Shown here in pieces: positions 2,736 to 21,773 of a DNA stretch of 64,000 nucleotides. The notes under the pieces are model-generated. The model saw nothing but the letters and a program-made list of their open reading frames with translations. It was not told where the DNA came from and did not search any database. The DNA is taken from contig JAVHQC010000017.1 of assembly GCA_036170915.1 (NCBI GenBank), positions 1 through 64,000 of the forward strand, in the 5' to 3' direction. The DNA is from Cyanobacteria bacterium auto_48_18 (GTDB lineage Bacteria > Cyanobacteriota > Vampirovibrionia > Obscuribacterales > Obscuribacteraceae). A program made the translations under genes and the position numbers. Each line of letters opens with the position of its first letter. Positions within the stretch are counted from its first letter, which is position 1.

Positions 2736-3644
2736 CTACTCGAAGAAAGCCTTCCGCTCGGCTTCTTCATGCAAATCATGTTTGATAATGTGGTGTCTAC
2801 TTGGTGTCGCCGAGTCCGAAAAGATCAGCGGCAGCTCATCGTAGTAGAGTTCTGCTATTAATGTGGAAAAATCTTTGTCGTAGCAGTCTTTCAGAATTTT
2901 CAGGTTAGTCGAGGGAAAGCTGTCTTTGAATTCCTTATTGTATTTTGGCTTAAAGTAGCGGATCAGCGAGGCTTCGTAAAGTGTGATACGTTCTGCTTCG
3001 TCAGTACCGAACAACTTGTCCAAGCCCATAGAAATTCGTTCGCCGTCCTCATCCTTTTCTTGTGCGCGCGGATTAAAAATCGTGAAGACGGTGTTGTCAG
3101 CTTCGACTTCCAGCAATAGAACATACAAAGCATGAGTGTCCTGGGGCTCTTGAATAGAGATCTTCTGAAGGGTCTCATGCTTCAGCAGCCGCTCAAGGGC
3201 GTTTCTTGAGCCGCCCGTGCCGTAAGCCTGACCAACATATAGGACCTTGAAGTTCAAGACGCCTCGCTGAGTTAGTTGACTCATTTCTTCGTTGTTATCT
3301 GGATAGACGGTTTGTCCCTGAGGACCGACCGGGAAGCAGAAATCGCCTTCCGTTCGTAAGGTACATTCCGGCGGAAACTCCCATCGCAACTCATGAGTTT
3401 TTCCAGCGACTTCATACTTAGTGAAAAGAGATGAGTCTTCTACCCGCGATCCAATCGTCTCGACTCTAGGCATCAGTCCAATCATGTAAACATGGCAGTT
3501 CGGAATGCGTGCGGCAAACTGCTCAAATTGCTCCGGTTCGTATATTGCCGAGGCGGGCATCAGAACGAAATCACTCGCGTGCATTCCGAGTGCGTGTTCC
3601 ACGTCAAAGAGTTTGTTATCGAACATGTTGCGAATACCAAACAA
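2736..3644 (-). CDS. Hypothetical protein, GIY-YIG-like nuclease
   Basis: HVYMIG ... VLYVGQA ... ERLLKH ... LYEASLIRYFKPKYN resembles the GIY-YIG motif set with a long insertion. Confidence 0.55.
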   Translation of the reverse strand: MFGIRNMFDNKLFDVEHALGMHASDFVLMPASAIYEPEQFEQFAARIPNCHVYMIGLMPRVETIGSRVEDSSLFTKYEVAGKTHELRWEFPPECTLRTEGDFCFPVGPQGQTVYPDNNEEMSQLTQRGVLNFKVLYVGQAYGTGGSRNALERLLKHETLQKISIQEPQDTHALYVLLLEVEADNTVFTIFNPRAQEKDEDGERISMGLDKLFGTDEAERITLYEASLIRYFKPKYNKEFKDSFPSTNLKILKDCYDKDFSTLIAELYYDELPLIFSDSATPSRHHIIKHDLHEEAERKAFFE

Positions 3645-3685
3645 GCAACAAGCTCTTGGCAGGTTGCGCGGCTGGGGAAATGGTA

Positions 3686-3743
3686 ATTATAAGCCACTTC
3701 CGGGGGGTGTCATAGCGGTAGACAAAATGGGTTTTGTCTACCG
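3686..3743 (-). promoter_or_regulatory. Sigma70-like promoter with adjacent 12-bp inverted repeat for the three-gene operon
   Basis: Minus strand ATGACA (3713-3708)-N16-TATAAT (3691-3686). Perfect IR CGGTAGACAAAA-tggg-TTTTGTCTACCG at 3716-3743. Confidence 0.5.
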
Positions 3744-4038
3744 TGGTGCCAGGTAGGAATTACACCCGACGAGACTTTTTAGCCTCTCTACGACTTGCCA
3801 AATCGGACGATGCTTCAACTAACTCGATGCGCCGCTCCTGCCTGACTTATATGAGTCGAGTGGGAATTCATTACATGATTGTTCTTCCTCTTGGTAATTC
3901 GATTTGGTCGCCACTGGCGAATACGACTCCATGCATTTTCCGCCCCGCACATTAATAGGGACGCAATCGGGGTGATATTCACTGTCCTTCCGGGACTGCA
4001 TTGCCTTAGCCGATCTTGGCTTGTTTCGTATTTCTTCA

Positions 4039-4134
4039 AGTGTACGGGGGCGGCGCCACCGTGCGTCAAGCGCGCAGCCGACCGTTTCTGATTCAGACAC
4101 ACACATCCGCTTGACCCACGGAGCCACCCCCGTG
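4039..4134 (-). promoter_or_regulatory. Putative Frpo-like single-stranded DNA promoter hairpin
   Basis: Imperfect IR 4044-4072/4108-4133 (23 Watson-Crick pairs). The minus strand carries TTGACG (4069-4064) inside the stem and TACACT (4044-4039) at its base. Confidence 0.6.
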
Positions 4135-4182
4135 CCCCGGTTTTTCGAGGCGAAATGCCCTCACTAACTGGAGGTAAACATC

Positions 4183-5010
4183 ATGGAACAATACGGTTTG
4201 GAACTAACCAATAATAGTAAGACATCGTGGGCATTCAGCTTGCCGCGCAGTGCGACTTGCATTGGCGCAACGGAACTATGTCGAAACGTATGTTACGGCA
4301 ACGGAGTGCGCTATCAAACGGCTGGACAAAAGGAAAAGCGGCATCGCAACTTGCGCACCGTCGAGCTGCTGCTGTCCAAAGGAGGACCAGAACTACTCGC
4401 GCAGAATCTTCTCGCGTTGATTGATCAAGCGAAGCCTGGGGATTGGCTGGCTGCCTCTGTCGCGGGAAGGAGGACGATGACGCCCTGGTCAATTAGGGTC
4501 CACGACGTGGGTGATTTTCATAAAATCTCTTACGTGAATGCATGGTGGATCGCGGCTATACAACGCCCTCAATGCTCTTTCTGGTTCTATACGAGAAGTT
4601 TTGTAGACAAGCACTTATTTGATGCCATGTCTGAACTCGCTTCCCTAGCCAATTGCCGAGGATGGCTGAGCATTGATTCCGAAAACTTCGAATCCGGTCT
4701 CCTTGCGTATTCAAAGCGGTCTGATGTTTGGGAACTGGCTCTGCTTCAGGAATCCGAAGATTCGCTCCACGAGAATTTATTGCCCGCACTTAATGCATGC
4801 ACGACTGTAAAGCAGGTCGTTTCTTTTCCTGTGCATCGCGGGCGATATCACGCTCCTCAGATCAAGCACAAGAGTCTATTCTCCTGTCCGGCAGTCTTGG
4901 GTTCGTACAAATTGGAACCAAACCCACGCAAACCGAGACCATGCCAGGCTTGCGCATTCTGCTTGCCTGCGCCGAGCACAACTACTTCTGTGGAGGTGCA
5001 CTATGAATAG
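4183..5010 (+). CDS. GP88-family (phage gene product 88-like) Cys-rich, radical-SAM-like protein
   Basis: FSLP...TCIGATELCRNVCY, RVHDVGDF, FWFYTRS, C-terminal CPA and CQACAFC; RBS GGAGGT upstream. Confidence 0.7.
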   Translation: MEQYGLELTNNSKTSWAFSLPRSATCIGATELCRNVCYGNGVRYQTAGQKEKRHRNLRTVELLLSKGGPELLAQNLLALIDQAKPGDWLAASVAGRRTMTPWSIRVHDVGDFHKISYVNAWWIAAIQRPQCSFWFYTRSFVDKHLFDAMSELASLANCRGWLSIDSENFESGLLAYSKRSDVWELALLQESEDSLHENLLPALNACTTVKQVVSFPVHRGRYHAPQIKHKSLFSCPAVLGSYKLEPNPRKPRPCQACAFCLPAPSTTTSVEVHYE

Positions 5011-5470
5011 CCGAACGCTCAAGAAGCAGCTGAAATACATCGTGCCGGAAATTCGTTTGGCTCTTATCAAAGAGCCGGGTGGTAAGCCGGTTGCAGTGGG
5101 CTGTCCCGAGGACCTAGAGAAATTCATCGAACCACTGAAGATACTCAGCGAAGAGCATTTCGTCGCTTACTTCTTAGATGCACGCAACAACGTGACGAAC
5201 GTGCAAGTGGTATCGCATGGCACAGCCTCTGCCAGTTTAGTCCATCCTCGTGAGGTTTTTAAAGGAGCGATACTGGCGAATGCGCATGCAATTATCGTCG
5301 CGCATAATCATCCAGCTGGATCGATGACTCCCAGCAGCGAGGATATCGAGACGACAGGGATTCTCATCAAGGCTGGTGACATTCTCGGCATGAAGGTCAT
5401 CGACCATCTCATCGTAAGCTCCAGCGGATTCTGCAGTCTGCGGGAAACGCACGGCTACCTCTGGGCGTGA
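5003..5470 (+). CDS. radC: RadC-like JAB/MPN domain protein
   Basis: EHF..LDARN, SLVHPREVFK, HNHPAG..PS.ED and DHLIV motifs; overlaps the upstream stop codon. Confidence 0.9.
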   Translation: MNSRTLKKQLKYIVPEIRLALIKEPGGKPVAVGCPEDLEKFIEPLKILSEEHFVAYFLDARNNVTNVQVVSHGTASASLVHPREVFKGAILANAHAIIVAHNHPAGSMTPSSEDIETTGILIKAGDILGMKVIDHLIVSSSGFCSLRETHGYLWA

Positions 5471-5484
5471 CAGGCGTAGGCGAT

Positions 5485-5527
5485 AGCCCGACGGGTCTTT
5501 CCTGGCGGGCTTTTGTCTATTTCTTTT
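5485..5527 (+). terminator. Intrinsic terminator after gp88-radC
   Basis: AGCCCG...CGGGCT stem followed by a T-rich tract. Confidence 0.6.
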
Positions 5528-5778
5528 GCAGCTGCGTGGCGTCGGCCGGCTGGTAAAGCTTTTCTGAAAATGTAGCGGAAATGCCAGGTATAACGCTTTA
5601 TACATGGCGAAAGCGCTACATCTTGCTGTTAGGTTCGAATTCGATAGTGCAAAGCAGCTGTTCTACCAAGCGGTGGAACAGCTGCTATAACATTTGTAGA
5701 AACGTTGGTGGCGCCCATCAGAAGTCGGCACGATAAAGCTTGTTGTGGAGACGTTAGCGGCGCCCAGGCGCCTGCATG

Positions 5779-6108
5779 TTATGACACCAGGGGTGGTGTT
5801 TTGCGTCTCACGGGAGGGAAGCGAAGAACTTTTTTGTCGCTCTTGCTTCCCTGATCTCGCGGTTCAGCAGCATTTCGCTTGCACCCGGTGCATAGCCGAA
5901 CCTCGTCGTCTGTCATTTTCGACAGGATAGTGAAAAGCTTGTCGGTGTGTGTCTTTGCCGAGAGGCAGTCGAATACCCAGTCCATACGGGTTAGGGGTAC
6001 AACACAAACCAGATTGTCGTCCGCATCAATGATTGCGCCGACCGTAGAATCAAATCCTTTTACGTTCAAAGGATTTCGTTTAGTGACCAATGTCAGTTTA
6101 ATTTCCAA
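5779..6108 (-). CDS. Hypothetical protein
   Basis: 109-aa ORF with GAGGA RBS-like sequence upstream of the TTG start; no recognisable motif. Confidence 0.4.
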   Translation of the reverse strand: MEIKLTLVTKRNPLNVKGFDSTVGAIIDADDNLVCVVPLTRMDWVFDCLSAKTHTDKLFTILSKMTDDEVRLCTGCKRNAAEPRDQGSKSDKKVLRFPPVRRKTPPLVS

Positions 6109-6425
6109 AATTCGTTCCTCCAGAGATTTTCATCTCTCTTTCTGTTTAAGAGCCGCCTCCGGCGCATTACAAAGCGCCGCGAGCGACCGGAAAACGTGCA
6201 CGACTTCTGGGGCGTTTCTTTTTGGCGAGTGGTATGCCACTCGTTCCACCAAAACCAGTATTTCAAATCGAGCTGGGAAGTGTTACAGGGAAAACCCTAG
6301 AGACAATTCCTGGAATTGGCTGGGAACCTGGGCTCAACTTCGTCGTCAGTGTCTCGCTTGGCAACATCTCCGAAATTGCGCCTTATTCCATTAACCACTA
6401 TGATTTTGCAGGCAAGGTGGATTAA

Positions 6426-7691
6426 ATGGACGAGATAGATAAAATCAATCGCGCATTCACTCCGGCGCACGAAATTCGAGAACCGACCCATTTCGTTGGA
6501 CGCCACGATGAAGTGAAAGCAGCGATTTTAGCGCTACCTGTGGATGGAGCCTTTCTGGCCGTCTGGGGGCCACGCGGCGTTGGCAAAAGTTCTTTCGCTA
6601 GGCAAATACAACTGCTCGCATCCGGAGACAATATTCTTGCGGAGGTTATCGGCGAGAGAAAGTTGGTTCCGAAAGAGGGTTTCCAATATATCGTCCAGTA
6701 TGTGGCTTGTGATCGTACCTCCATAAGAACCACAACCGATCTAATTGGTCGAATCATAAATGGGGATGCCCAGGCGAAACCTTTAGGAGCGTATCTAAAG
6801 GATGGCGATAAGCCAGCGGGCAAGCGCGAAAAGACATCGACGATAAAATCTAATCTCGGTGTTTATTCTGGAGAGATATCCGAGAAGTTCATTCCTGAGA
6901 CCGAACAGCCCAAAGAAAAAACACAGCAATTTATGGGATTGCTGCGGGATGTTCGAGAGCACAATAGGAGTTCAAAGCAAGGTCTTCTAATTGTAGTGGA
7001 CGAATTTGACCAACTTGCAGATAAGACTGGTTTTGCATCACTGGTTAAGACTTGCTCAAATGATTTCGTGAAGTTCTGTGTTGTAGGTATTGCAAGTGAT
7101 TTGACTACTTTGTTGGGAGACCACGCCTCTATTGCTAGACAGCTCAATTCAATTGCGTTAAGGCGCATGAGTCGACCTGAATTGCTCGCCATCATAGATC
7201 GCGCAAATACCGATCTATCTCCACGCACAGTACAGAAGCCATTGGCCGAAGAAATCGTACAGCTCAGCGAAGGGTTTCCCTATTTTGTGCACTTACTTGG
7301 GCGAGAATGTACTCTGGAGTCTCTGTCTGCTGGTGATAAAGAAGTTGGACTCGCTCATCTTGAAGTGGTGCTCGCCAAGCTCCGCTCAGGCACCTTGTCT
7401 CACATTTACGAACAAGCGTACAACATTGCCGTCAAACACTCGCCTCAACGGGAATTGCTTCTCAAAGCATTCGCGAATGAAGTTAGCGATGAAATTGAAA
7501 CCGGAGGGGTTTACGAATTCGTTAAGGGTCTTGGTGTGACCAATCCATCACAATTGATGAAGGAACTTACAAGTCCAGAGGGTTTTGAGCCCTTTTTACT
7601 TCCAGTTCGCGACCGATGCTACGGGTTCGCGGACCCAGTTTTCCGGACATATGTGAAAATCAGAAATCCGAAGTTCGGCGGCAGTCCCTAA
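6426..7691 (+). CDS. AAA+/P-loop ATPase (archaeal-ATPase/Cdc6-like) with C-terminal winged helix
   Basis: FTPAHEI..P.HFVGR, Walker A GPRGVGKSS, Walker B IVVDEFD, GFPYFVHLLG, C-terminal FADPVFRTY. Confidence 0.8.
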   Translation: MDEIDKINRAFTPAHEIREPTHFVGRHDEVKAAILALPVDGAFLAVWGPRGVGKSSFARQIQLLASGDNILAEVIGERKLVPKEGFQYIVQYVACDRTSIRTTTDLIGRIINGDAQAKPLGAYLKDGDKPAGKREKTSTIKSNLGVYSGEISEKFIPETEQPKEKTQQFMGLLRDVREHNRSSKQGLLIVVDEFDQLADKTGFASLVKTCSNDFVKFCVVGIASDLTTLLGDHASIARQLNSIALRRMSRPELLAIIDRANTDLSPRTVQKPLAEEIVQLSEGFPYFVHLLGRECTLESLSAGDKEVGLAHLEVVLAKLRSGTLSHIYEQAYNIAVKHSPQRELLLKAFANEVSDEIETGGVYEFVKGLGVTNPSQLMKELTSPEGFEPFLLPVRDRCYGFADPVFRTYVKIRNPKFGGSP

Positions 7692-8006
7692 TTGAAACCG
7701 TCCCTTTACGGGCGTCCGTAGTTGATTTCTCTAGCTTACCTATCCTTTTCCCCAGGTCCGGCTCAGCGAAAAACCCCCTAGTCAGAAAATCGAAATCGCA
7801 CGGTACAATGAAATTATGCGGCGAGATTGATGGCGCTGCAGCCCATTAGGTCGACCAACACCATCAACATTCTTTTTGCGCTCAAATCATATTGATGGTT
7901 TGAGCTTTTTCGTTTTCAACAAAAACTTTCACTCTCGCAATGCGCGGCACGGCTTTTCATCAGTAGTGCCGCCGACTTGTTGCGAACACTTACAGAGGTA
8001 TATCAA

Positions 8007-8590: not shown

Positions 8591-8837
8591 CGCGCAGCCT
8601 GTGCAAATAAACATCAAATTCGAATGCACAGCCGCGCGGAGTAGGCAACGACGCGCAACCAAGACCGAGCGAAGCGAGCCTTTACCGGAGGTGGCATCAT
8701 CGGATGGTAAGGCAAGATAAAAGGTCTCTCTAGTTATTCCGTATGCCACCACTGGCGGGGCTCTTAAGAAGAGATGCAACGGGCTCGCTTCGCAAAATCC
8801 ACTGCAAATACTCGAAGATGTAGGCAGGTTGCGCGTC
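8591..8837. other. Putative origin of transfer (oriT) region
   Basis: Nested inverted repeats and minus-strand TATCTTG^C (8719-8712), similar to the RP4-family nic YATCCTG^Y, directly upstream of the RHH and relaxase genes. Confidence 0.65.
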
Positions 8838-8855
8838 TTAAGAACCGGAGGCAGT

Positions 8856-9266
8856 ATGGCCAAACCAAACAAAGACTTCAAGTCAAAAGTAGAAACTTAT
8901 CTCTCAGGATCCGATCACGATCGTTTTTTATCGGTGTGCAAACAAAGACACACCACCAAATCTGAAGTAGCTCGCGAAGCTATCCGATGGTATCTCGATA
9001 ATCTCGATGAACGCAAATTAGGAAAGCATAATTCCGAGCTATCAAAAAACATCAAGAGTATGACAGATCGAATATGCGGCATGCTCGCACGCCAGGGCGC
9101 GCAGACCGGGACACTCTACGAACTAGCCTGGCAGAACCACGCAGAAAACAAAATGCAAGATCGCTTCATCGCCGCTGCCAATCTCGTCAAAGGCAAAATG
9201 CGCAAGCGCCTGGAGGACGATGAAAAGGCAATCGCCGAACGAATGAGTAAGGTAGTCGAAAAATGA
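8856..9266 (+). CDS. Ribbon-helix-helix relaxosome accessory protein (MobC-like)
   Basis: KVETYL...TKSEVAREAIRWYL RHH pattern; GGAGG RBS; overlaps the relaxase start. Confidence 0.7.
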   Translation: MAKPNKDFKSKVETYLSGSDHDRFLSVCKQRHTTKSEVAREAIRWYLDNLDERKLGKHNSELSKNIKSMTDRICGMLARQGAQTGTLYELAWQNHAENKMQDRFIAAANLVKGKMRKRLEDDEKAIAERMSKVVEK

Positions 9267-10549
9267 TGATCGTTCGCCACAGCTACATCTCAGTTAAGGC
9301 GAAGCAGCGAGGCGGAGTCAGTTTGAAAGCCGCAAGAGGATTGGCGATCGGCACGGCACTCGGACACGTCAAATACATCCAGCATCGACCCGGCAAAGAT
9401 CTAGAAAAAGGCGGTCGAGATGCCTATACCGATGCGGAGGATTCGGTAGATGCAAAAGAACTGCGGGACATAATCCGTGAGTACGAAGGAAGGGGAGTTG
9501 TCGTCCACAAGTTGACTCTATCCCCAGAGGTTAGCCCGAACGATCCGAAGGAATTTACGAGGGAGGTGATGAAAGAACTCGGATCGGAGAAGGGTCTGGA
9601 TCTCCAGTGGTGGGCAGTGACTCACGATAACACCGACAATCGCCACGTTCATGTTGTGGTTCTACCAAAGGATAAAGACGGGCGGCTCGTGCGGTTCGAC
9701 AAGAACGATTACAACAAGCTCAAAGAGTTTGGCGATAGATATCTTGAACGAACTCAATACTCAGACTGCCGAATGGCAGAGCTAGTAAGACAAGAGAAAC
9801 ACCGTCAACGCTCAACCGAACGCCAACAACAGTTAGAAAAAGAGCGGCAAGAACGAATTAGAAATGGCGAAGAGCTTCCCTGGCTGCACAAGAAAATCGT
9901 TAGAGAACAGCTCGAACCATATCAGCAATGGAACAAGGACCAGCCGCGCGATCCAAAGGATTCATTCGAATATTTAGGACAGCGTTTTTCAAAAGAGGAT
10001 GGTTACGAACGGTTGGCAGGTCTCCGTCGCCACCTGCATGAGAACACAAACAAATCGCTCAGGCTACCAAAGGAGGATTACAAACGCCTGGCGAGTTGGA
10101 TCGAACAGAAAGACCGAGCCAGATTCTCCGGTGAAATAGATCGACAGCTAGCAAGCGCAAAGGCATCTCAAACAGCAAGAGATGAAGCGCGAAATTCGCC
10201 GGCGGCAAATCGATATGTTTCTCCGCTACAGCAAGAAATGATGAGAAATCCAATCATGGGACTCTTCCTGACAGAGGCAGCCATCGCCGCAGAACTAGTC
10301 CGATGGATTCCGCTTACCGATCAACGAGACCGCCTCAAAGAGAATCGGGACGATCTCGAAGATGCGAAACGAGACGTTGAAGCCAAACAACGAACTCGCG
10401 GCAATCCAGACCAGAAGGCTGCCGACGAGGAGATCATCGAGAAGATTGATGGCGCAATCGACGACAACAAAAACACACGCAAAGATGCGCGAAAAGAGCG
10501 AGAAATCGAAGAGAGAAAACGCGATCGCGATCTTGACTTTATGGAGTAA
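9263..10549 (+). CDS. HUH relaxase, MOB(P)/VirD2-like
   Basis: Motif I HVKYIQHRPG, motif II HKLTLSP, motif III HDNTDNRHVHVVV; charged coiled-coil C-terminus. Confidence 0.85.
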   Translation: MMIVRHSYISVKAKQRGGVSLKAARGLAIGTALGHVKYIQHRPGKDLEKGGRDAYTDAEDSVDAKELRDIIREYEGRGVVVHKLTLSPEVSPNDPKEFTREVMKELGSEKGLDLQWWAVTHDNTDNRHVHVVVLPKDKDGRLVRFDKNDYNKLKEFGDRYLERTQYSDCRMAELVRQEKHRQRSTERQQQLEKERQERIRNGEELPWLHKKIVREQLEPYQQWNKDQPRDPKDSFEYLGQRFSKEDGYERLAGLRRHLHENTNKSLRLPKEDYKRLASWIEQKDRARFSGEIDRQLASAKASQTARDEARNSPAANRYVSPLQQEMMRNPIMGLFLTEAAIAAELVRWIPLTDQRDRLKENRDDLEDAKRDVEAKQRTRGNPDQKAADEEIIEKIDGAIDDNKNTRKDARKEREIEERKRDRDLDFME

Positions 10550-10555
10550 ACAAAT

Positions 10556-12649
10556 ATGCAAACAACAGCACAAGACATGGGCATCGTAGACTCTACGCCA
10601 AAAGAATTACCGGTACTCGCAGTTAATGTTCTGGATCGGCTTGGATACCAGGTTTCCAGAGCGAGCAAACAACTCGATCAAATACTCGCCGTAGAAAGAC
10701 TAGACGAGCAGGTCGGAAGAGATTGGTGGAGACACGAGTATAGAGTCGTTCTCCGGTGGTCAGAGACATCAAATGGAGGCTCACTGGTCGACGTTGAAAT
10801 CTCAGAGAAGAAAGGAGGTGGTACACACGAAGACTGCCGAAGTCGATGCAAACAAGTTATTGCAAAGCTGCAAGAAGACGCGCAACGCGCAAAGCGTGTT
10901 TCCGCAACCAAAGCGAAGTCCACCATCCATGGTGGCGCAACATGGGGTGATGAAAACGAGATTCGCAAAGCCGGATACATCACGCATAAGCCTGAAGCCA
11001 CTCGATTAATCATCGGTAAGACACAGAACAACGAGTACATCTCGGTACCGGAGCTGGTGACAAATGCGCACGCGATTGTCTGCGGACGAACCGGCGTAGG
11101 CAAGTCTAGAGGCTTCTTCATCCCGAACCTTATGGAAAGACTCGGAACCAACATGATCGTCACTGAAGCCACGCCCGGATACGAACCAGGCGAACTGTAC
11201 ACACTCACTTCGGGTTGGAGGAAACAAGCTGGTCACCGAATTTATTCGTTCAACCCCGCCGATATGTCCTCCACCCGAATCAATCCGGTCGACCGAGTAA
11301 GAATGGCGCCGCAACTCGAAAAAGCCAAGGAAGCCGAAAAGCTCGCCGACTTGATCATCATGAACGGCAGCGGCGAGGAACAACGCGTCGACCCAACATG
11401 GGACCGCTCTGAAAAACAGCTCCTCGTGTCACTGATACTGCACGCAGCAGCAACTGATCCAGAGATGGGACATATCGGCGCAATCAGATGGCTGCTTCTT
11501 TCTGGAATCAATCGAGTCCGCGAAACGATGGCAAAGAGTAAGTCCGAGCTTGCGCAGATGGAGTTCGAAGGTTGGCTTGGATCGACATCCGAGAACTTCA
11601 GATTCGGTGTGCTCTCGGGGCTGATGACGAAACTCAATCCTTGGATAACTGACCAGCTCGTAGCGCTAACGGAGAAGACAGACATCGACTTTGAAGAGCT
11701 AAGAAATCAGTTGTTCACCTTCTACATCGCGGTGCCGAGCCGCTCGCGCGATAGCAAGTTGATCGGCTCCCTCCTGGTGAACTTCCTCCTCGATTACTTG
11801 CTCGACACTAAGGCCACTATGAAGTATCCGACAGCGATGTTCCTCGATGAATTCACCAACTTCGGAAAGATCGCAAACATCGCCAACGTACTGTCAATCG
11901 TCAGAAAAGCGAAGATAAGTCTCGTGCTTGGATTTCAAAATTACTTCCAGCTCGAACGAGTCTACTCACAGAAGGAGGCGCAAATAATCTTCGATCAACC
12001 TGCAACGCAGATTTACTTCAGGCAGAAGAACTTCCGCGAAGCCCGCGCCCTGAGCGAAGCACTCGGAAGAACAACAATCGAAGAAGTCACCGTAAATGAT
12101 ACCGGTCGAGTGCACGAATTCATTCAAGGTCGAGCACTCGCCACACCGGATGAATTGATTAATCTGACCGGCGAAGTTATCGCATTCACGAACGACACCT
12201 GGCCGCTCAAGCTCCCGCTCACCGCGCCATATGCATACGAACATGCATTGGCATATCCACCGCCGGAACGCCCAGATCATGAAATTACCGAGCACGTTCG
12301 CCGACGCGGCAGAACCGCGGAGCAAAAGGAGTCGCAGCAACATCAGCAGCAAGAACCAACAAACAACACCACCGAAAATCCATCAGGCGGAAACACCAGA
12401 AACCGCAGAAACAAAGACCGCAACAACAGAAGTCGTGACGGTGGAAATTTTGATAGCAGAAACCGCAATGACGAAAATCGCGACAACCGAAATCGACGCA
12501 AGCGAGATTCCGCAAGCCGCGATCGCGATAATCGCAACTTCAATTCAAGCGCGCGAGAAACTCATGAAGAGCGCTCGCACGAAGACCAATCCTCATATTC
12601 ACAACCACTAGACAACTCACCGGAGGTCGACGACGTATGGCCATCATAG
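10556..12649 (+). CDS. Type IV coupling protein, VirD4/TraG/TraD family
   Basis: HGGATW, Walker A GRTGVGKS..FIPNL, FNP..S.RINP, Walker B FLDEFTNFG, Q...QL..VY, A..LS..LG..T. Confidence 0.9.
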   Translation: MQTTAQDMGIVDSTPKELPVLAVNVLDRLGYQVSRASKQLDQILAVERLDEQVGRDWWRHEYRVVLRWSETSNGGSLVDVEISEKKGGGTHEDCRSRCKQVIAKLQEDAQRAKRVSATKAKSTIHGGATWGDENEIRKAGYITHKPEATRLIIGKTQNNEYISVPELVTNAHAIVCGRTGVGKSRGFFIPNLMERLGTNMIVTEATPGYEPGELYTLTSGWRKQAGHRIYSFNPADMSSTRINPVDRVRMAPQLEKAKEAEKLADLIIMNGSGEEQRVDPTWDRSEKQLLVSLILHAAATDPEMGHIGAIRWLLLSGINRVRETMAKSKSELAQMEFEGWLGSTSENFRFGVLSGLMTKLNPWITDQLVALTEKTDIDFEELRNQLFTFYIAVPSRSRDSKLIGSLLVNFLLDYLLDTKATMKYPTAMFLDEFTNFGKIANIANVLSIVRKAKISLVLGFQNYFQLERVYSQKEAQIIFDQPATQIYFRQKNFREARALSEALGRTTIEEVTVNDTGRVHEFIQGRALATPDELINLTGEVIAFTNDTWPLKLPLTAPYAYEHALAYPPPERPDHEITEHVRRRGRTAEQKESQQHQQQEPTNNTTENPSGGNTRNRRNKDRNNRSRDGGNFDSRNRNDENRDNRNRRKRDSASRDRDNRNFNSSARETHEERSHEDQSSYSQPLDNSPEVDDVWPS

Positions 12650-13203: not shown

Positions 13204-13415
13204 ATATCGAACTCGAAGCCCTTAGACTAGTAGAGACATCTACCGGACCAATCAACTTGAAACTTTTGAAGAGAGCATTCTTACGTTGAAGGTCACGCAG
13301 ACGAGAGTCCGAACTGGTGCTCAGTGAGGGTTGGGCTGCCTGAAACTTGACGTTCGGTCAGTGGAATAGGCATCGTGGCACGATTTCATTAAAGATTGGG
13401 GTTTCGAGTAAGTTT

Positions 13416-15083
13416 ATGTTTTCCGAAAAAAACTCATACGAGCCGGACGCTCTTCGGGATGCATACAAGGTTCTGCTTGGAACACTTGGTTTCCAGTCGA
13501 TCGAGAGCCTTAATGAGGAGACCGCAGACTGGAAAGTTGATACCTTTGACAGCTCTTATCTAGTGAAAGTCCTAACGGATCACAACATACGTTCGCTATA
13601 TCAAATCGTGCGAAATTTGCATTACAGGCAACTTGAGCTGGGATTAAAAGGGAGCATTATTCTTTATCATCGAATAATCCCTAAACCAAAGTCAGAGTAT
13701 TTTGTTGGAAATTTTCCTTTGAAAATTCTGGATGCGTGTGCGATAGGTGCACATTTGGAAATTCTGCTTGCTTATTCGCAAAATTTAGAAGACGAAGGAG
13801 ATTTTGTGTCCAGTGGACATTACGCATTGGAAGGAGACGATCTTCATAGATCTGCAACCATTTTTGTAGACTATTTGCCAGAGGGCCACTTGCGCTTCTC
13901 TGGGAATGCTACGTACGGAAATCTTCGCGGCTTTGGTCCCAACATGGGATTTTTTGAGTTTGTAGCTGATGATCTGAAAGATCGAAATTCGAGATTATTC
14001 ATCTTGGACGAGGACTGGAAAATTCCAGAACAGTCAGCAGCAAGCTATGGAAATACGGTAATCTTTGAATCTACGGCTTATTCCGATGAACCGTATCGAG
14101 CGATATTCACATTCAAGAAATTCGGCTTAGTGGTGGAGGAACGCAATTTTCAATATGCACCATTCGGACACAATGTGTCCTTGAGTGGATTTTACGAAAA
14201 GGCTATTTTTCCTAGCGCTACGCGAGAATACTCTGCTGTTTCCGATGACGAGATTTTTAGCCTATCTTGGAACTTCAAAGGAGTCTTTCGATCAATCCAG
14301 GTGGGCGCATTAGAAATCAGATTATGGCTGAACCAGTTTGCGCCAGATGAGCGACGACCGATGTTCTATCTTCTTCAGCGCGTTCGATTCTTCAACAACT
14401 TAATGGTGCGAGAAGCCGTTGAATGGTTGCATTTAAACACTCTGAAATCACTTGAGATTCAAAGAAATGACACTGAGAGCGAAAAGAGTTTTCTAATTAC
14501 GGCTTTTGGAAATCCAGCAAAGAGTGGGTCAACACTTGCAAGAATCTATCGATCAACCAATCGATTAGTCCCGGCAAACGTTGCACACCTCGATGATATC
14601 AAAGAACAACTTGAGCAGAATACTGAGATCAAACATGTTGTTTGCGTTGAGGATGTAATTGGTTCGGGAGAGGACATGCTCAATTTTCTTAGAGCACTTG
14701 ATCGAAAGTTTGGACTGCTCTTAGCCGAACGCAATATTTCGGTCATCATTCAATCCATTTGCGCGCTCACTGACGGTGTGAAGAAAATTGAGAGTGAAGC
14801 AAACAATCTCAAATACAAATTTACGCTGAACTATTATGAGCTGATGGACAAATGCTTCTCCCAAAAACCTGAGTATTGCAACATCGATGAAGATTGGGAT
14901 GAGATCATGAGGATAGCTGAAAAATACGGACGGCGGCTTCGGCCAGACAAACCCCTAGGTTATGGCGATAGCCAAATGCTCGCTGTCTTTCACGACAATT
15001 GTCCGAACAACACACTACCGATTTTGTGGGCGCAGTCGAAAGAAATTGAGTTTTATTGGCAGCCCTTATTTCCTCGGGAATGA
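13416..15083 (+). CDS. Multidomain protein with C-terminal phosphoribosyltransferase-like (PRTase-CE type) domain
   Basis: GNPAKSG, VVCVEDVIGSG (PRPP-loop-like), PLGYGDSQ...FHDNCPNNTLPILW; start taken at ATG 13416. Confidence 0.7.
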   Translation: MFSEKNSYEPDALRDAYKVLLGTLGFQSIESLNEETADWKVDTFDSSYLVKVLTDHNIRSLYQIVRNLHYRQLELGLKGSIILYHRIIPKPKSEYFVGNFPLKILDACAIGAHLEILLAYSQNLEDEGDFVSSGHYALEGDDLHRSATIFVDYLPEGHLRFSGNATYGNLRGFGPNMGFFEFVADDLKDRNSRLFILDEDWKIPEQSAASYGNTVIFESTAYSDEPYRAIFTFKKFGLVVEERNFQYAPFGHNVSLSGFYEKAIFPSATREYSAVSDDEIFSLSWNFKGVFRSIQVGALEIRLWLNQFAPDERRPMFYLLQRVRFFNNLMVREAVEWLHLNTLKSLEIQRNDTESEKSFLITAFGNPAKSGSTLARIYRSTNRLVPANVAHLDDIKEQLEQNTEIKHVVCVEDVIGSGEDMLNFLRALDRKFGLLLAERNISVIIQSICALTDGVKKIESEANNLKYKFTLNYYELMDKCFSQKPEYCNIDEDWDEIMRIAEKYGRRLRPDKPLGYGDSQMLAVFHDNCPNNTLPILWAQSKEIEFYWQPLFPRE

Positions 15084-15125
15084 TCAACCTGATACTACAA
15101 ACGGAAATCCAATTCCATCGGATCT

Positions 15126-18100
15126 TTAGCTTACCTTGTGATACTTTGAATCTCTATTGTCAAACGCCGGTCGTGTGCCCTCAAGGATATCCACGACCTT
15201 TTTGTTGATCAATGGTTCCTCAAGTGAGCCTGAACTGTACTCAATATTGATATCGTTTGCCTTCTCCAAGTGAGCGTGTATCACCTGCTCTGCGTCGCAG
15301 ACAACGGCCAGGTTAGGATTATGCGTCACAATTATGACTTGTCGCCGTTGCTTTGCTTCGGTTATTGCCGGCACCAGCGTTTCGAAGACCGTCTGGTTAT
15401 CTAAGTTCTCTTCGGGTTGATCGATGACCAATGGGATGTCTGACTGATCAATTAGCAGATAAAAAACAAGGAGAAGTAGCCCCCTTTCTCCTGGAGATAA
15501 CTGCTCTATGTCCTTATTGCTCAGGCGAAGCTTATACTGCGGAATCAAGTATTCCAATCCGTAAAGAAAATCGTATAGCTGTTCTAACGAAACACCTTTC
15601 TTCAATTGGGTTGCCGGATCCGTATTGAATGCACCATCATCGGTCAAGTTATTGAACATACGAGTCAGAAAATCTATGACGTCGTCGCGATCGTTCCAGT
15701 CGAACTCTTGAAGAATCTCCTGTAGCCTGCGTGGTCCGCCTTCGCCGTAGTAGAACCCACCCGTCCCTCGGGAAATGAAGTCAAAAAATTGCCGCTCGAA
15801 GTCTTCCATTTCAAGCGAGACCGCAAATGAGAGCCCTATTTTGTCCTTAAGGAGTGGATGCTGTTCGGCAAATTCGCGAACTGGACTGTAATACTGTTCG
15901 TAAACTTTCAAGATATCTTCCAGCTTCTCGTGTATTCCAAATACAATCTTTTCTCTTTCCAATCGAAGTGCACTAATCATTTGAGGCACGGTGTCGAGCG
16001 CGGTTAACTGTGCTTGCAAATACCCGAGCGAACCATCCAGCTCTTCGGAGCCAATCAAATTATTGCGAGCTTCAGTCCATAGCCGCTTCTGCTCCAAATA
16101 CTCTTGGTACAGCAAGACTGGCTCAGAAAGCTTTTCTTCCAGCTCGCCGATCTGGCTGTCAATCTGGGCAAGCTGCTTAGGAAATCCGCCATCTAATTCT
16201 GTAGAAAGAAGTCCATCCAGATGCGCTCGGTTCAATTTCAGCTGCTCGCGTACGGTTAAGATCTGCGTATCGTCGAGCCGGACTTGAAATACTGATGCGG
16301 CATCAACACCAAGTTCTTCAAGATCTTCGGACGAATCTCTTTCAACTTCATCCACCATTGTCCGCAAGTTTGCAAGACGCTCAACAAGCCGATCGCAAAT
16401 AGCTAGTTTCCTCACGACCTGATGAAGCTGCTCTTCCGCTTCCTCAATTTTGCTTACAACCTGCTGGCGCTGTAGTCGTTGTTGTTCCAACGCTGCCACA
16501 GTAATCTTGTCGACATTGTCAGCTGACGGTTCCTTGATTTCCGCCGGAACATTTTTCTCATGTACTTGCAATTCTTCTTTCTTCTGGTTTAACTGCGCTT
16601 CAATTCTCTTGCGGTGCTCGGGCAACAGTCTCTGTTCATTTTGAACAATGTCCACGTTTACCTTCGATAACTTAGCTCTATCAACATTTATTGACTGTTG
16701 AATCTGTTCAGTTTTAAAACCAATGAGACCATCAAGTGAGCCTTGCCCAAGTTTTTCCGCCGATGGAACGTGCGAGTAGATTACTGACTTAAGCTCGCCC
16801 TCAAAGCTTGAAGTCCCTTTCGGATCATTGCAGATTTCTTCTAAGAAATTCTGTGGAACATACTTGACCAGTTCGACGGCTGATGGATCCGGATTTTTGT
16901 CCATCTCGGCGCGCGTTGAAACTCCGCTGAGCCAAATTAACGTGGTTTCAAAATGGACAGACAAATTGTCTTTGCCCTTCCTGCGAAACTTGTGCTCATT
17001 TAGAAAGGAGAAGCACCTTGATGCTTGCGTGTTGCCCGCAAGCGCAATGCAGTCTGCGAGAGCGCTTTTCCCGCTTCCTTTGTTTCCTATGATGGCAACC
17101 AACGCTGCATTCAGCGGCAGCCGTGCGGCAAACCATGTTTCCTTCAGCGTCGACAGCGACTTCTTTTCTATCACAATTTCTTGAATGTACTTCGTTGCGT
17201 TGTTCTTTACTCTCGCTACAGGTGGCGGGACAGACCCGATGAAAACTCTTTGATCAAATTCCTTAAGAGCATGCTGCAACCCTTTAAATGTCGGATCAGC
17301 TTTCATCCACGTAAAACAGTTACCGATTCGATCTTTCTGTCCAGAGTTCTTGAGATGATGGGCATCACTGCAATCAACAAGATGATCGTTAACTTGCGCA
17401 TTGGTCAGAACTTTCCGGTGCCTTGAATAATCCTTATGGTTATCCAAAGCACTGAATACAAGATCGACGGAGTTGATCAGGTCCTTTTTCGTTGCAGCAG
17501 CCTGAGCCGTCCAAGTCATTGCAGCCCACTCAGCCTTTCCCACCGCAGTAGCGAATTTCCCTTCGAAATATGGACTTTCCAAAACCTCTTCAACTACAGT
17601 CGGTGCAACACATAGATTATTGAAGCCGGTTATCAGTGCCGAAGGAAAGGTGGCTTGCACTCCCGGCGGACTCGAATCTATTACCTTTTGTCCAAAGTCG
17701 GTAAGACTTTGCCGGTCAACGACACCGTTCCATTGCCCATGGGCTATACCTGGAGCCAATTGATATTTAGGTCTAAGGGCCGCAAGAAACTGTGCATCAA
17801 TCTGGTCAGCAGTGAGCTCATCGGAGAAAATTACATGGTAGTTAATCCTGCTGAGATCACCATCGGCACCGGCAAATGTTGACAGTCGCAGTTCAATAAC
17901 GGGCAGTACACAGGCAATATTCTTGAGGCGACCGTTCTGTCGCGCCGCAACCACCTTCCGGTAACCGTCCAGAAAGAGGTAATCGTTTATGCCTATCACC
18001 GCGAATTCCGGAGGCAGAGATTCAAGATCTGCGAGGAATTGCTCCCACTTATCGCCGCCCCCTGCTCCATAAGTTGTGTTGACCAGAGAATCAGGAGTAT

Positions 18101-18242
18101 GAACATGTAGGTCCCATCTTCTCCATTCCGATCCACGAGGGTATTTGGCATTGGTCAAAGTCTGCGCGCTCCCGTAAACAAAGCAATTGTCGTATTTCTT
18201 TCGATCTCGGCTAAGTCCCAACTGAACTCTTGATGGCACCAA
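15126..18242 (-). CDS. PHP-domain plus SMC/ABC-type ATPase (TrlF-family/Ppl-like)
   Basis: GSEWRRWDLHVHTP, GINDY, SDAH (PHP); GNKGSGKS, long coiled coil, LSPGERG, VIDQPEENLDN, IVTHNPN (ABC ATPase). Confidence 0.85.
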   Translation of the reverse strand: MVPSRVQLGLSRDRKKYDNCFVYGSAQTLTNAKYPRGSEWRRWDLHVHTPDSLVNTTYGAGGGDKWEQFLADLESLPPEFAVIGINDYLFLDGYRKVVAARQNGRLKNIACVLPVIELRLSTFAGADGDLSRINYHVIFSDELTADQIDAQFLAALRPKYQLAPGIAHGQWNGVVDRQSLTDFGQKVIDSSPPGVQATFPSALITGFNNLCVAPTVVEEVLESPYFEGKFATAVGKAEWAAMTWTAQAAATKKDLINSVDLVFSALDNHKDYSRHRKVLTNAQVNDHLVDCSDAHHLKNSGQKDRIGNCFTWMKADPTFKGLQHALKEFDQRVFIGSVPPPVARVKNNATKYIQEIVIEKKSLSTLKETWFAARLPLNAALVAIIGNKGSGKSALADCIALAGNTQASRCFSFLNEHKFRRKGKDNLSVHFETTLIWLSGVSTRAEMDKNPDPSAVELVKYVPQNFLEEICNDPKGTSSFEGELKSVIYSHVPSAEKLGQGSLDGLIGFKTEQIQQSINVDRAKLSKVNVDIVQNEQRLLPEHRKRIEAQLNQKKEELQVHEKNVPAEIKEPSADNVDKITVAALEQQRLQRQQVVSKIEEAEEQLHQVVRKLAICDRLVERLANLRTMVDEVERDSSEDLEELGVDAASVFQVRLDDTQILTVREQLKLNRAHLDGLLSTELDGGFPKQLAQIDSQIGELEEKLSEPVLLYQEYLEQKRLWTEARNNLIGSEELDGSLGYLQAQLTALDTVPQMISALRLEREKIVFGIHEKLEDILKVYEQYYSPVREFAEQHPLLKDKIGLSFAVSLEMEDFERQFFDFISRGTGGFYYGEGGPRRLQEILQEFDWNDRDDVIDFLTRMFNNLTDDGAFNTDPATQLKKGVSLEQLYDFLYGLEYLIPQYKLRLSNKDIEQLSPGERGLLLLVFYLLIDQSDIPLVIDQPEENLDNQTVFETLVPAITEAKQRRQVIIVTHNPNLAVVCDAEQVIHAHLEKANDINIEYSSGSLEEPLINKKVVDILEGTRPAFDNRDSKYHKVS

Positions 18243-18251
18243 CGAAGTTGT

Positions 18252-18857
18252 CTAAGGCTGCTTTTGCGCCGTCAAAATCCGCTCGACCAGCTTGTACACT
18301 GTGGTGCCAAAGGTGCGTGGCCAATCTACGCACGGTGGACTGTCTCGTGTCTTGGCCCGCTCTATCGCAGCGACAATGCGATCGTCAGTAAATTTGCGAA
18401 CGTCGATCCCTTTTGAGTAGTTGGGCAAATGCCTTTCCAACTTTTCTGAACATTGACGAGAACCACCGATGGTTGTGTCCTCGAAGTGCAGAAGCAACCA
18501 GTACTCGAACTTCGGGTTGCTCAAAGCAAGTCCATACTGCGCGCTTTCTTGAGACCACGCAAACAAAGGAATTAGCTGTTCTTCGGTCCAATCGTCCTTG
18601 TCCACGACGAGCCAGGCTTCATCAGTCTTTCGCAATGCAGTTCTTCTAATTCTTGCTTTGAGCCGCTCCAATACTTGTGGCGGAGAGGTCGCTTCTTCAC
18701 CCGGAATACATTCGACTCGTACTACTGCATTTCCTGCGTTGAGCATCGCGAAATACTGAGGCTCTGTTTTAGAACCTTCTACTGCGACAAGAAACAGCTT
18801 GCGATATCTGCGCTCACCGAGAGGGCGGCTAAATGATCGTCTCTTCTTCAATGCCAT
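18252..18857 (-). CDS. RloB-family (TOPRIM-like) protein
   Basis: VEGSKTEPQYF, WLVVDKD, LSNPKFEYWLLLHF, TTVYKLVE. Confidence 0.9.
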   Translation of the reverse strand: MALKKRRSFSRPLGERRYRKLFLVAVEGSKTEPQYFAMLNAGNAVVRVECIPGEEATSPPQVLERLKARIRRTALRKTDEAWLVVDKDDWTEEQLIPLFAWSQESAQYGLALSNPKFEYWLLLHFEDTTIGGSRQCSEKLERHLPNYSKGIDVRKFTDDRIVAAIERAKTRDSPPCVDWPRTFGTTVYKLVERILTAQKQP

Positions 18858-20194
18858 TAGACACCCTGCTTACACTCGTTCTCGTGCCAAGAATGCACGT
18901 TACGACCGTCAAAGAAAACGCGAGGAATTCCGCCCAAGCGCCCTTGTAAGTAGCTCTTGCGAATGTCCTTGTCATAACGAACATCCTTGAAGTCGCTGAA
19001 CGATGTTAGGCTAGAGCCGCCCTTCTCGCTCCGCTCTGTTATCCACATTTCGTCCCGCCGCAGCAAATCCTGATCCATGAGCAACACATCGTGAGTGGTG
19101 AACAACAATTGCGCCCTGGTTTCGGATTTGCAACTCGACAGATATCCTTCCAGCAGATGACGAGTGAGCAAGGTGTGCAAGCTGCGATCGAGCTCATCGA
19201 TAACATAGACCTTTTGCGATTTCTCGACACAAAGATCCAGAAAAACCGGCAACAGATCTATTACGCGCCTCGATCCATCAGACTCAAACTCCATGCCGAA
19301 CTTGACGCTTTCACCGACACTGTTGGAGTGAAACGTCACTAGCTTTTTTGCAAACAGTTCACCATCCTGGCGCGACAAGGCAATTGGATCCCGGAGCATG
19401 AGCAATGCTACGTCTCCATCCTTCAAATTCTCTTCAATATCTGCAATGAATTCCTTCGGCAATCGCAAGTCGTCGAGACTTATTGCTTCGAATTCGAGAT
19501 TCGTAATTCCAGTATCTAAATGCGCTAGCGCATCTCTCATCGCACAGAGCGTCGGGCTGCCATCCTCTAGAAATCGCTCAAATCGGCCGAAGCGAGAATC
19601 TGGTGCCACCAGCTGAAGGTGATTCTCGAACCAGTCGTACACAGCTCGAAAACGCTCTACCTTTTGAGAAATTGAGTTCGTCAAAAAGAGTTGATTGTCT
19701 CTAGTTCCGCGAAAGACGAATTGGAGAGCTTGATCTTTTTCGAGACTCTTATCGAAAACGATCCTGGAGCCAATCCGCTCGTACAGCACTTTCTCGCTCG
19801 ATGCCAGTACTTCGACAAGCTTTTCTTCTAAGACAGCTTTCCTCGTTACGGCAAAACTGAATGCATAAATCTTCTCCTCAACAAGAACTTCGAGAGAGAA
19901 CCGCGCTGGCTCCGTTGCGCTTGTTGGATCAAGCAAAAAATTTTCTACTGGAATTGCCGAACTTGGATGAGTGCCGCGTACGACCAAGTTCTTGATAAAG
20001 CTCAACGCCTTGAACAGATTTGTCTTGCCCGACGCATTGCCGCCATACACAACAGCCAACGGAAGGATTCTGGTTCTATATTTGTCGACTGCAGGAATTC
20101 TTTCCCCGTGCTGCTTTTCCTTACTAGCAACCAAAGACAACGAAGCTTCCGTTTGGAAGGACATCCAATTCTGCAAAGTGAAGCTTATTAACAT
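18857..20194 (-). CDS. RloA-like AAA_21/ABC ATPase
   Basis: Starts MLISFTLQNWMSF; YGGNASGKTN, ESDGSRR, IDELDRSLH, QLLFTTHD, SYLQGRLGGIP; TAATG coupling to rloB. Confidence 0.9.
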   Translation of the reverse strand: MLISFTLQNWMSFQTEASLSLVASKEKQHGERIPAVDKYRTRILPLAVVYGGNASGKTNLFKALSFIKNLVVRGTHPSSAIPVENFLLDPTSATEPARFSLEVLVEEKIYAFSFAVTRKAVLEEKLVEVLASSEKVLYERIGSRIVFDKSLEKDQALQFVFRGTRDNQLFLTNSISQKVERFRAVYDWFENHLQLVAPDSRFGRFERFLEDGSPTLCAMRDALAHLDTGITNLEFEAISLDDLRLPKEFIADIEENLKDGDVALLMLRDPIALSRQDGELFAKKLVTFHSNSVGESVKFGMEFESDGSRRVIDLLPVFLDLCVEKSQKVYVIDELDRSLHTLLTRHLLEGYLSSCKSETRAQLLFTTHDVLLMDQDLLRRDEMWITERSEKGGSSLTSFSDFKDVRYDKDIRKSYLQGRLGGIPRVFFDGRNVHSWHENECKQGV

Positions 20195-20260
20195 ACGGGT
20201 CCCCTTGCCTCTTCCGAGGCATTTCCTCTTTGTGAGGGCGTTTTTGCCCCTTAGGATCCA

Positions 20261-20296
20261 ATTGTAGCACAAGACGAGAAAAATGCTCGTCTTGTG
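20261..20296 (-). promoter_or_regulatory. Extended -10 promoter overlapped by an 11-bp inverted repeat (candidate operator)
   Basis: Minus strand TGCTACAAT (20269-20261); IR CACAAGACGAG-N7-CTCGTCTTGTG at 20268-20296. Confidence 0.55.
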
Positions 20297-20382
20297 TAAA
20301 ATATTCGCTTCGAGCTTTGTGTTCCAAGAGCATTTGGCAAGACCGACGCTCAAAACCGGTCCAGACATGTCTTGTTTGAGAA

Positions 20383-20470
20383 TCCCGACACTTTTCCCGA
20401 CAATTTGTCGGGATTTGCGCCTCATTGAAGCCAAAAGCTTAAGTCCCGACACTTTCCCGACATTGTCGGC
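20383..20470. repeat. Duplicated TCCCGACA repeat clusters
   Basis: TCCCGACA at 20383, 20395, 20444 and 20455; inverted TGTCGGGA at 20406 and TGTCGGC at 20464. Confidence 0.8.
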
Positions 20471-20550
20471 GGTTCTTGGCGGCACAATTTCCTGTTTGCG
20501 TCGATTTTCTCGCGCGAGAAATTGGGCACTTTCTGGAAAATGTACAGGTG

Positions 20551-21144
20551 TCAATCGTAGGAACGTATCTCAGCAGTCGGCTGGGGTCCGGCTTCGATGA
20601 TGGCAGCGATTGTTTCCAGTTCGACCGGTTCGAAGTTCCAGTTCTCGACGCTGACGTTGATCTGTCGTCCAGAGAGCTTCCACCGATTGTGAACGTGTCC
20701 ATGAATCAACCAGCCTCCAGTGTCGACAGGACGCTGACCATAGTACTTCTGCATTGGCTCCTTTTCTGCGCGATATGGAAAGTGGTGCAAGAGGACGATC
20801 TCTCCAGCAATCTCCATGTGTGTTTCGATCTGCACCGAATCGAATCCGGCATCGATATAGGCCTGCAGCCATTTGTTTGGGCTGCCGATCTTCGGATGAC
20901 AACGATCGTGGTTCCCTGCTATGAGAAGCTTCTTTCCGTTCAATTGAGGCAAAATGTCTGCCACTAAATGTGGTTGCATCGCAAAGTCGCCCAGGTAATA
21001 TACCGTGTCCTCCGGCGCTACAACTCCGTTCCACGAACCAATCATGGAGGCGTTCATGTGAGCGACCGAGTTAAACGGGCGTTCAGTGTATTTGATGATG
21101 TTAGCGTGTCCGAAATGATGATCGGATGTAAACCAAATAGCCAT
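20551..21144 (-). CDS. Calcineurin-like metallophosphoesterase
   Basis: FTSDHHFGH, YLGDF, GNHD, HHFP and HGHVH motifs; ATG 21144 with purine-rich RBS. Confidence 0.9.
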   Translation of the reverse strand: MAIWFTSDHHFGHANIIKYTERPFNSVAHMNASMIGSWNGVVAPEDTVYYLGDFAMQPHLVADILPQLNGKKLLIAGNHDRCHPKIGSPNKWLQAYIDAGFDSVQIETHMEIAGEIVLLHHFPYRAEKEPMQKYYGQRPVDTGGWLIHGHVHNRWKLSGRQINVSVENWNFEPVELETIAAIIEAGPQPTAEIRSYD

Positions 21145-21680: not shown

Positions 21681-21696
21681 CCTTCAAGCTTTTAAT

Positions 21697-21773
<77 letters not shown>

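Follow-up and report, generated by a model that had tools for sequence, protein, structure and literature searches.

A conserved hairpin with the features of a single-strand DNA promoter in integrative mobilisable elements of Obscuribacterales-type hosts

The hairpin at positions 4039-4182 of the window (the whole stretch of 64,000 nucleotides analysed here) is very probably a single-strand DNA promoter of an integrative mobilisable element, Frpo-like in function, as covariation, strand bias, a -10 signature, the position of the downstream genes and the polarity of the putative nic site all favour this reading of the sequence. It stands in front of gp88 (4183..5010, plus strand; PF17338 confirmed) and a RadC-like JAB domain gene (5003..5470, plus strand; PF04002 confirmed) which overlaps the gp88 stop, and it belongs to a family which, judged by its alignments and distribution, is strongly conserved in a non-photosynthetic cyanobacterial lineage. 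The preliminary description of this DNA had gone further and proposed that gp88-radC is expressed only from incoming single-stranded DNA. The computable tests are favourable to expression from such DNA, but "only" is too strong, as the transferred strand is single-stranded in the donor too, during the relaxase-driven unwinding of conjugative elements, and read-through from upstream is possible.

The hairpin is formed by a 5' arm (4108..4133, minus strand), which by fold and covariation is the predicted template arm of the transferred strand, and a 3' arm (4044..4072, minus strand), the predicted non-template arm, which carries the -35 and a 19-nt spacer. The arms pair as the preliminary description had them: the helix runs from 4072/4108 to 4059/4121 and from 4054/4123 to 4044/4133, and between the two segments a single T at 4122 faces TGGC (4055..4058, minus strand), the 4-nt side of a 1x4 internal loop. 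On the minus strand, the plus-strand mismatch C4051/A4126 turns into a G·T wobble, as previously noted, while a second mismatch absent from that account, C4064/C4116, becomes a G·G on the minus strand and involves the last base of the -35. This -35-like hexamer (TTGACG, 4064..4069, minus strand, read from 4069 to 4064) is paired save for that base, and is followed after 19 nt by the -10-like hexamer TACACT (4039..4044, minus strand, read from 4044 to 4039), the partner arm spanning 16 nt, exactly as had been described. The -10 lies at the stem foot and is mismatched from -11 on, in agreement with the claim that folding leaves most of it unpaired. The apical loop (4073..4107) is unconserved in sequence in the alignments, with a family median of about 34 nt.

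When each strand was folded as DNA, a comparison suggested in the preliminary description, the minus strand folded better than the plus strand. The minus-strand fold of 4039-4182 reaches -34.9 kcal/mol (z -3.25), with 1 of 200 shuffles equally good, versus -28.1 kcal/mol (z -1.98) and 9 of 200 shuffles for the plus strand. The 95-nt core (-29.0 kcal/mol on the minus strand versus -22.7 kcal/mol on the plus strand) exceeds in stability every one of 2556 windows of 95 nt taken along the 64 kb on both strands in steps of 50. In duplex DNA the rightward promoter is without a -10, as had been stated, and a sense-strand -10 occurs in 0 of 73 copies in four registers. A search of 3600-4300 gave no sigma-70 duplex promoter for gp88; the sole match there is leftward (3713-3686) and serves the neighbouring gene. 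Neither blastn nor the covariance model identified further hairpin copies in the same genome, and no Rfam family scored above its gathering threshold for the window or for 15 homologous loci.

Homologues of gp88 are encoded in 20 of 61 genomes, one of them weak. Among 30 gp88 loci, 26 include the gene start, and all 26 contain the hairpin core (the four loci without a start were dropped). The covariance model detects the hairpin in 68 of the 104 host-family genomes (167 matches), in 0 of 97 genomes from other families of the same class and in 0 of 150 genomes of a phylum sample. Viral contigs gave one match to the hairpin pattern, and the named records matching this pattern are mostly titled Obscuribacterales or Melainabacteria, which suggests this lineage for the hosts, with some well-paired matches labelled otherwise. 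Sixty larger loci, which were picked for contig room around the matches and extend about 17 kb towards the expected oriT and 3 kb in the opposite direction, contain 79 copies, 73 of them distinct; 16 extra flanking stretches of relatives, together with C18 (the contig bearing the other end of the element, see below), added 0 copies.

Both conservation and compensatory changes were found upstream of homologous gp88 genes, where the preliminary description had proposed to look for them. A plain alignment of 24 copies (the 26 gp88-linked copies minus one duplicate and one long-loop copy) has 85.2% of its cells paired and double changes in 14 of 25 pairs, and its covariation score of 0.379 compares with 0.168 for shuffles (0 of 500 as high) and at most 0.141 for slid registers. 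As kin inflate cell counts, events were also counted on a gp88 tree of 25 copies, which gave 20 double changes from one Watson-Crick pair to another (null mean 1.8, maximum 10; 0 of 1000) and 27 changes between Watson-Crick and G·T versus 4 between Watson-Crick and A·C. Three or more Watson-Crick types occur in 16 of 25 pairs across the 73 distinct copies, the wobble cells of which (119 G·T versus 13 A·C) favour the minus, transferred strand; the transferred-strand fold is the better one in 70 of them. In the 40 copies not preceding a recognised gp88 start, G·T outnumbers A·C by 72 to 1. Covariation and strand bias together show that the predicted minus-strand fold has been under selection.

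The 3' arm carries a promoter signature, in which A(-11) is present in 72 of 73 copies, T(-7) in 72 and both together in 71, while -10, -9 and -8 are free. Conservation of A(-11) and T(-7) around a variable middle is typical of the -10 elements read by primary sigma factors. T(-12) takes part in a pair in 69 of 73 copies, and A(-11) in just 13. TTG is found 19 nt upstream of the -10 in 61 of 73 copies, although 4 of the 26 gp88-linked ones have lost the -35, and a spacer of 19 nt on the 3' arm versus 16 nt on the partner arm occurs in 58 of 73; RNA polymerase would read this 19/16 spacer as about 17. The internal loop is T/TGGY in 66 copies and T/TGGGC in 5, a near-invariant sequence which exceeds what the geometry requires. 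As the covariance model included the -10, a control was run with a pattern lacking it, which gave 120 matches in 118 loci; where at least 11 of the 15 free positions pair, both bases are present in 90 of 90 matches, versus 2 of the 30 that pair less well, in a set that shares genomes with the 73 copies and is independent of the -10 filter only. The signature is likewise present in 38 of the 40 copies not preceding a recognised gp88 start. Transcription is predicted to start at 4145..4147 (plus strand), where the pairing register would place +1 at 4145 and the nearest purine is 4147. A Y-R step occurs at the predicted +1 in 37 of 73 copies, and is weak evidence for that position since it is about as common at -11 (39), -6 (33) and +8 (31). 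Public RNA-labelled runs contained short contigs of relatives only, with no start, strand or level in them.

A ribosome-site-led ORF lies rightward, 29-46 nt past +1, in 77 of 79 copies, and a leftward one is present in 3 of 77. The downstream genes encode gp88 (32, plus one fragment), ECF-sigma-like proteins (15), RadC (12), ribbon-helix-helix proteins (6), a small family without assigned function (5) and DUF2958 (2), in addition to four singles. The structure model of gp88 (pLDDT 82) is nearest to radical-SAM partial barrels, such as QueE (Z 9.2, rmsd 3.9, 187 aligned) and spore photoproduct lyase (Z 8.9), while a model from the single sequence was poor. The protein contains the invariant cysteines C26, C33 and C37, with a spacing unlike the usual CxxxCxxC, and a second, C-terminal cysteine cluster; it has no sequence match in the PDB, and Foldseek returned nothing at E <= 0.001. 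In some relatives (L018/L028, L026, L027 and L004) gp88 is in two pieces kilobases apart, and in L004 the end of a group II intron precedes the hairpin by about 350 nt.

The 15 copies directly preceding divergent ECF-sigma-like genes are those in L065, L073, L082, L084, L087, L089, L092, L099, L100, L103, L105, L106, L110, L114 and L116. Region 4 is present in 9 of 9 of these genes scanned and region 2 in 8 of 9; in the fetched loci the hairpin stands before 15 of 16 ECF-sigma-like matches, the remaining one being a fragment. An ssb gene is the next after the ECF-sigma-like unit in L089 and L105, and the leading region of L105 also contains, on the opposite strand, a T7-like single-subunit RNA polymerase gene (5373-7700; PF00940). 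In the window, a partial frame at the contig start (2-296, plus strand), with a stop near its beginning, is SSB C-terminal-like by eye, and the gap between this contig start and C18 could hide a second hairpin. Two repeats that follow radC, a 27-bp inverted one and a 24-nt direct one (5567-5624 and 5694-5766), have no match to the hairpin model. In the literature searched, which left most subscription titles outside, no description was found of this hairpin family or of a sigma factor behind a single-strand DNA promoter.

A second hairpin is predicted at 4134..4176 (plus strand), the outer arm of which (-11 to -1) can pair with GGAGG, the ribosome site of gp88 (4170-4174), while its inner stem carries a GAAA-type loop. 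Across 71 copies, the median unpaired value of the ribosome site is 0.62 in RNA from +1 versus 0.21 in read-through RNA; the site opens by more than 0.1 in the +1 RNA of 59 copies and is lower in 1, and the corresponding values for the window itself are 0.54 and 0.22. In arm controls, the ribosome site is unpaired at 0.25 with its own arm, 0.42 with a shuffled arm and 0.37 with a swapped arm, the own arm giving the lower value in 45 of 71 copies against the shuffled and 42 of 71 against the swapped arm. These folding models lend modest support to the view that, in read-through RNA, the ribosome site can be masked by the bases preceding +1. The second hairpin has no strand preference (sense better in 38, T-strand better in 30 of 71; G·U 93 versus 98), so that formation in RNA and in DNA cannot be told apart.

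The preliminary description had independently placed nic at 8712-8719, where GCAAGATA is indeed present, and had regarded its polarity as agreeing with the strand of the hairpin; a putative MOBP-type core (TATCTTG/C, 8712..8719, minus strand) is conserved there with that polarity, and by MOBP analogy the cut is predicted between 8713 and 8712. Read on the minus strand, the core is TATCTTGC in 23 of 24 aligned oriT regions and TATCCTGC in the 24th. A motif on the plus strand, which we take to be MOBQ-like, was considered as an alternative nic and is disfavoured, because GGTAA is lost from the one variant oriT, in which the MOBP core becomes exact. A 16-nt oriT-proximal motif (8663..8678, minus strand) is common to ColE1 with one mismatch; with the ColE1 nick where we assume it to be, the motif lies in both 3' of the nic core, on the same strand and the same side relative to the mobilisation genes. 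The stretch 8637-8709, which on the minus strand is 3' of the putative nick, contains highly conserved oriT blocks and an inverted repeat. The MOBP nick core consensus, given as (C/T)ATCCTG(C/T) in the available part of PMC3772185, is the form found in the variant oriT, so that the 23 oriT regions differ from it by one change and the 24th is exact. For MOBP, the same part of that source describes the inverted repeat as upstream of the nick; here the best-conserved one at oriT is 3' of the putative nick, a point against this nic assignment.

The mobilisation genes (8829..12649, plus strand) comprise a small ORF in the MobC position (no Pfam match), a relaxase (PF03432, 9263-10549, plus strand) and a coupling protein (PF02534, 10556-12649, plus strand). 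In the window, gp88 and radC are oriented towards the oriT region, beyond which these genes lie. From the conserved motif and the gene order we infer minus-strand nicking and leftward transfer. Wherever the locus includes mobilisation genes, in 42 of 42 copies, the hairpin is on the strand opposite to the sense of these genes, which is the predicted transferred strand; the count covers 42 of the 79 copies, the other 37 having no mobilisation gene in the fetched DNA. Thirty-nine of the 42 lie upstream of the relaxase, and with their rightward ORFs are placed in the leading region facing oriT, as far as the predicted nic position defines it, while 3 lie downstream of the coupling-protein gene, outside the leading region. 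The latter are the hairpin-sigma units of L082, L099 and L116, about 3 kb past the coupling-protein gene, on the T-strand and on the last-transferred side. According to the available text of PMC11541004, transfer typically reaches the relaxase gene last, and the T-strand encodes the leading genes.

The carrier is, by its sequence features, an integrative mobilisable element at tRNA-Met. The tRNA-Met gene and a 56-nt att repeat occupy 21691..21773 (minus strand), with the repeat of the tRNA 3' end at 21691-21746, and the second copy of the repeat (G000:C18:13793-13848) adjoins a tyrosine integrase; with att repeats on the window and on C18, the element would span about 35 kb or more across a contig gap. 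In a complete 31.5-kb relative the two repeats, the integrase and the mobilisation genes are all present, and its scanned ORFs of at least 100 aa included no mating-pore families; a VirB4-type PF03135 protein had no match in the present, 86%-complete genome. The tRNA-3'-end att repeat, tyrosine integrase, HTH_17 gene and oriT are shared with integrative mobilisable elements encoding a MOBP relaxase and a coupling protein. Neither such elements nor single-strand DNA promoters were found described for this lineage in the literature searched. The cargo (13347-21237 and G000:C18:3075-11834) includes PRTase-CE, SMC-like/AAA ATPases, an RloB-like pair and a type I restriction-modification cluster.

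Experimentally shown single-strand DNA promoters are, in the accessible portions of the literature found, those of the enterobacterial F and IncI1 plasmids only. Class 1 comprises Frpo1/Frpo2 (ssp1a/b) of F and ssi1-3 of ColIb-P9 (available parts of PMC9849209, PMC11541004 and PMC12672017), and as described there shares with the present family a stem-loop of the transferred strand with -35 and -10 boxes, located before leading-region genes oriented towards oriT, often in several copies per element. However, the two have no sequence similarity, the covariance model reaching at best 9.8 bits in the F leading region (52-68 kb) and blastn against this region giving a ribosome-site match only. The present hairpin is also shorter (about 95 nt versus about 330 nt for the listed class 1 sequences), lacks the AT-rich inner stem, and is hosted by an integrative mobilisable element of Obscuribacterales-type hosts instead of an enterobacterial plasmid; no hairpin homologue was found in PLSDB plasmids.

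Class 2 (ssp2/Frpo3) is found upstream of ardB/klcA/ardA (PMC12672017, 10.1101/2025.04.03.647016 and 10.64898/2026.01.09.698686, in their available parts). In our own parse of the F sequence, ssp2 resembles the present family in a TTG-type -35 near the loop, a paired T(-12), an open A(-11) and unequal spacer arms, but its asymmetry is mirrored (15 non-template/19 template versus 19/16 here), its stem extends far beyond the -10, it has no GGCTC/GGTGGYGC core, and the covariance model has no match at the F copy. This mirrored 15/19 asymmetry suggests that unequal spacer arms may generally keep a reverse duplex promoter off. The class 3 hairpin (the M.EcoGIX promoter) is conserved in F according to the part of PMC12672017 available, and the covariance model of the present family gave no match in F 52-68 kb, but the class 3 copy may begin outside that stretch. 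In sequence terms the present family is no member of class 1 or 2, yet its features are functionally Frpo-like; the principle is the one known from E. coli plasmids, and the family is an unrelated one.

The single-strand origins (ssos) of rolling-circle plasmids, which are primed by RNA polymerase, and sso1 of ICEBs1 also have a strand-specific fold on the nicked strand of a mobile element, and polymerase recruitment is described for plasmid ssos (available part of PMC4595007). Those structures prime DNA synthesis, whereas 77 of 79 copies of the present hairpin have a translated gene at a constant distance behind them. It is improbable that the present hairpin binds polymerase mainly to prime the complementary strand (single-strand origin) or to stall it (roadblock), with expression secondary: Frpo transcripts do prime DNA synthesis and ssp2 stalls it (10.64898/2026.01.09.698686, available part), ICEBs1 has an sso (PMC4595007, likewise) and 3 copies are on the lagging side, but a pure origin has no need of translation signals (ribosome site, start codon) at a constant 29-46 nt, or of multiple copies in one orientation with a separate gene behind each, and the hairpin is much smaller than F ssp2. 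The priming and promoter roles are not exclusive, and second-strand priming may be a second role.

Since both hexamers are on one strand in duplex DNA, with a spacer of 19 in 61 of 73 copies and a near-invariant core, they could also be read as a leftward duplex promoter of MerR-like type, dependent on an activator at the conserved 19-bp spacer and producing an antisense or non-coding RNA, the hairpin being incidental. This is very unlikely, as a leftward ORF is present in just 3 of 77 copies, the leftward gene here owns an 11/12 promoter, the partner arm, which would be upstream of such a promoter, covaries with the spacer, and a gene stands at a fixed distance on the other side. Slighter still is the chance of a structured RNA, either a minus-sense antisense RNA, which would give the same G·U bias, or a 5' leader of the gp88 mRNA, the plus strand folding too (z -1.98); a plus-sense leader would show A·C mismatches in place of the G·T excess recorded above, no Rfam family fits, and the A(-11)/T(-7) pair with its free middle outside the stem and the TTG at fixed spacing are unaccounted for by either RNA. 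A rightward duplex promoter for the ECF sigma of the element, with GGAGCC as its -35, can be virtually discounted: GAGCC is near-invariant and 15 copies precede ECF-sigma-like genes, but the sense positions -6 to +5, the site of its -10, carry at most 0.37 bits, and covariation and the minus-strand -10 would be unexplained.

For the single-strand DNA promoter, the following course of events is proposed. The relaxase would nick the minus strand at 8712/8713, and the strand would be unwound and transferred 5' end first, leftward. About 4.6 kb later, it is predicted to fold into the hairpin, on the 3' arm of which the -35 would be double-stranded and the -10 mismatched beforehand from -11 on. By its geometry, the 1x4 loop absorbs the 3-nt surplus of the 19-nt spacer, and polymerase would make use of this. 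Host primary-sigma RNA polymerase would then copy the 5' arm from about 4145 into gp88-radC, and this RNA may also prime the complementary strand. After conversion to duplex, expression should stop, because the rightward promoter is without a -10 and a 19-bp spacer leaves the leftward one mis-spaced; read-through RNA would tend to bury the ribosome site, for which the folding models above speak modestly.

A more elaborate version, in which the family is a compact class of single-strand DNA promoters with a double lock and a sigma relay, is tentatively put forward, and its elements jointly are rather doubtful. A sequence-specific T/TGGY bulge would let the 19-bp mis-spaced promoter work in the folded state only, and polymerase or a dedicated factor may recognise this bulge; the untranscribed anti-ribosome-site arm would silence read-through RNA. 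In part of the family, an ECF-type sigma of the element, fired on entry, would start a second transcription wave from duplex DNA.

The 73-copy natural alignment shows the rules that have been selected in this family, namely a duplex -35, unequal spacer arms, a paired -12 and an open stretch from -11 to -7, and such rules for the reading of a folded strand by polymerase are testable on an oligonucleotide of roughly 110 nt. If the hairpin acts as proposed, entry-triggered expression would be a property also of integrative mobilisable elements, in a deep lineage of non-photosynthetic cyanobacteria, and gp88, RadC and the ECF-sigma-like proteins would be candidate establishment factors.
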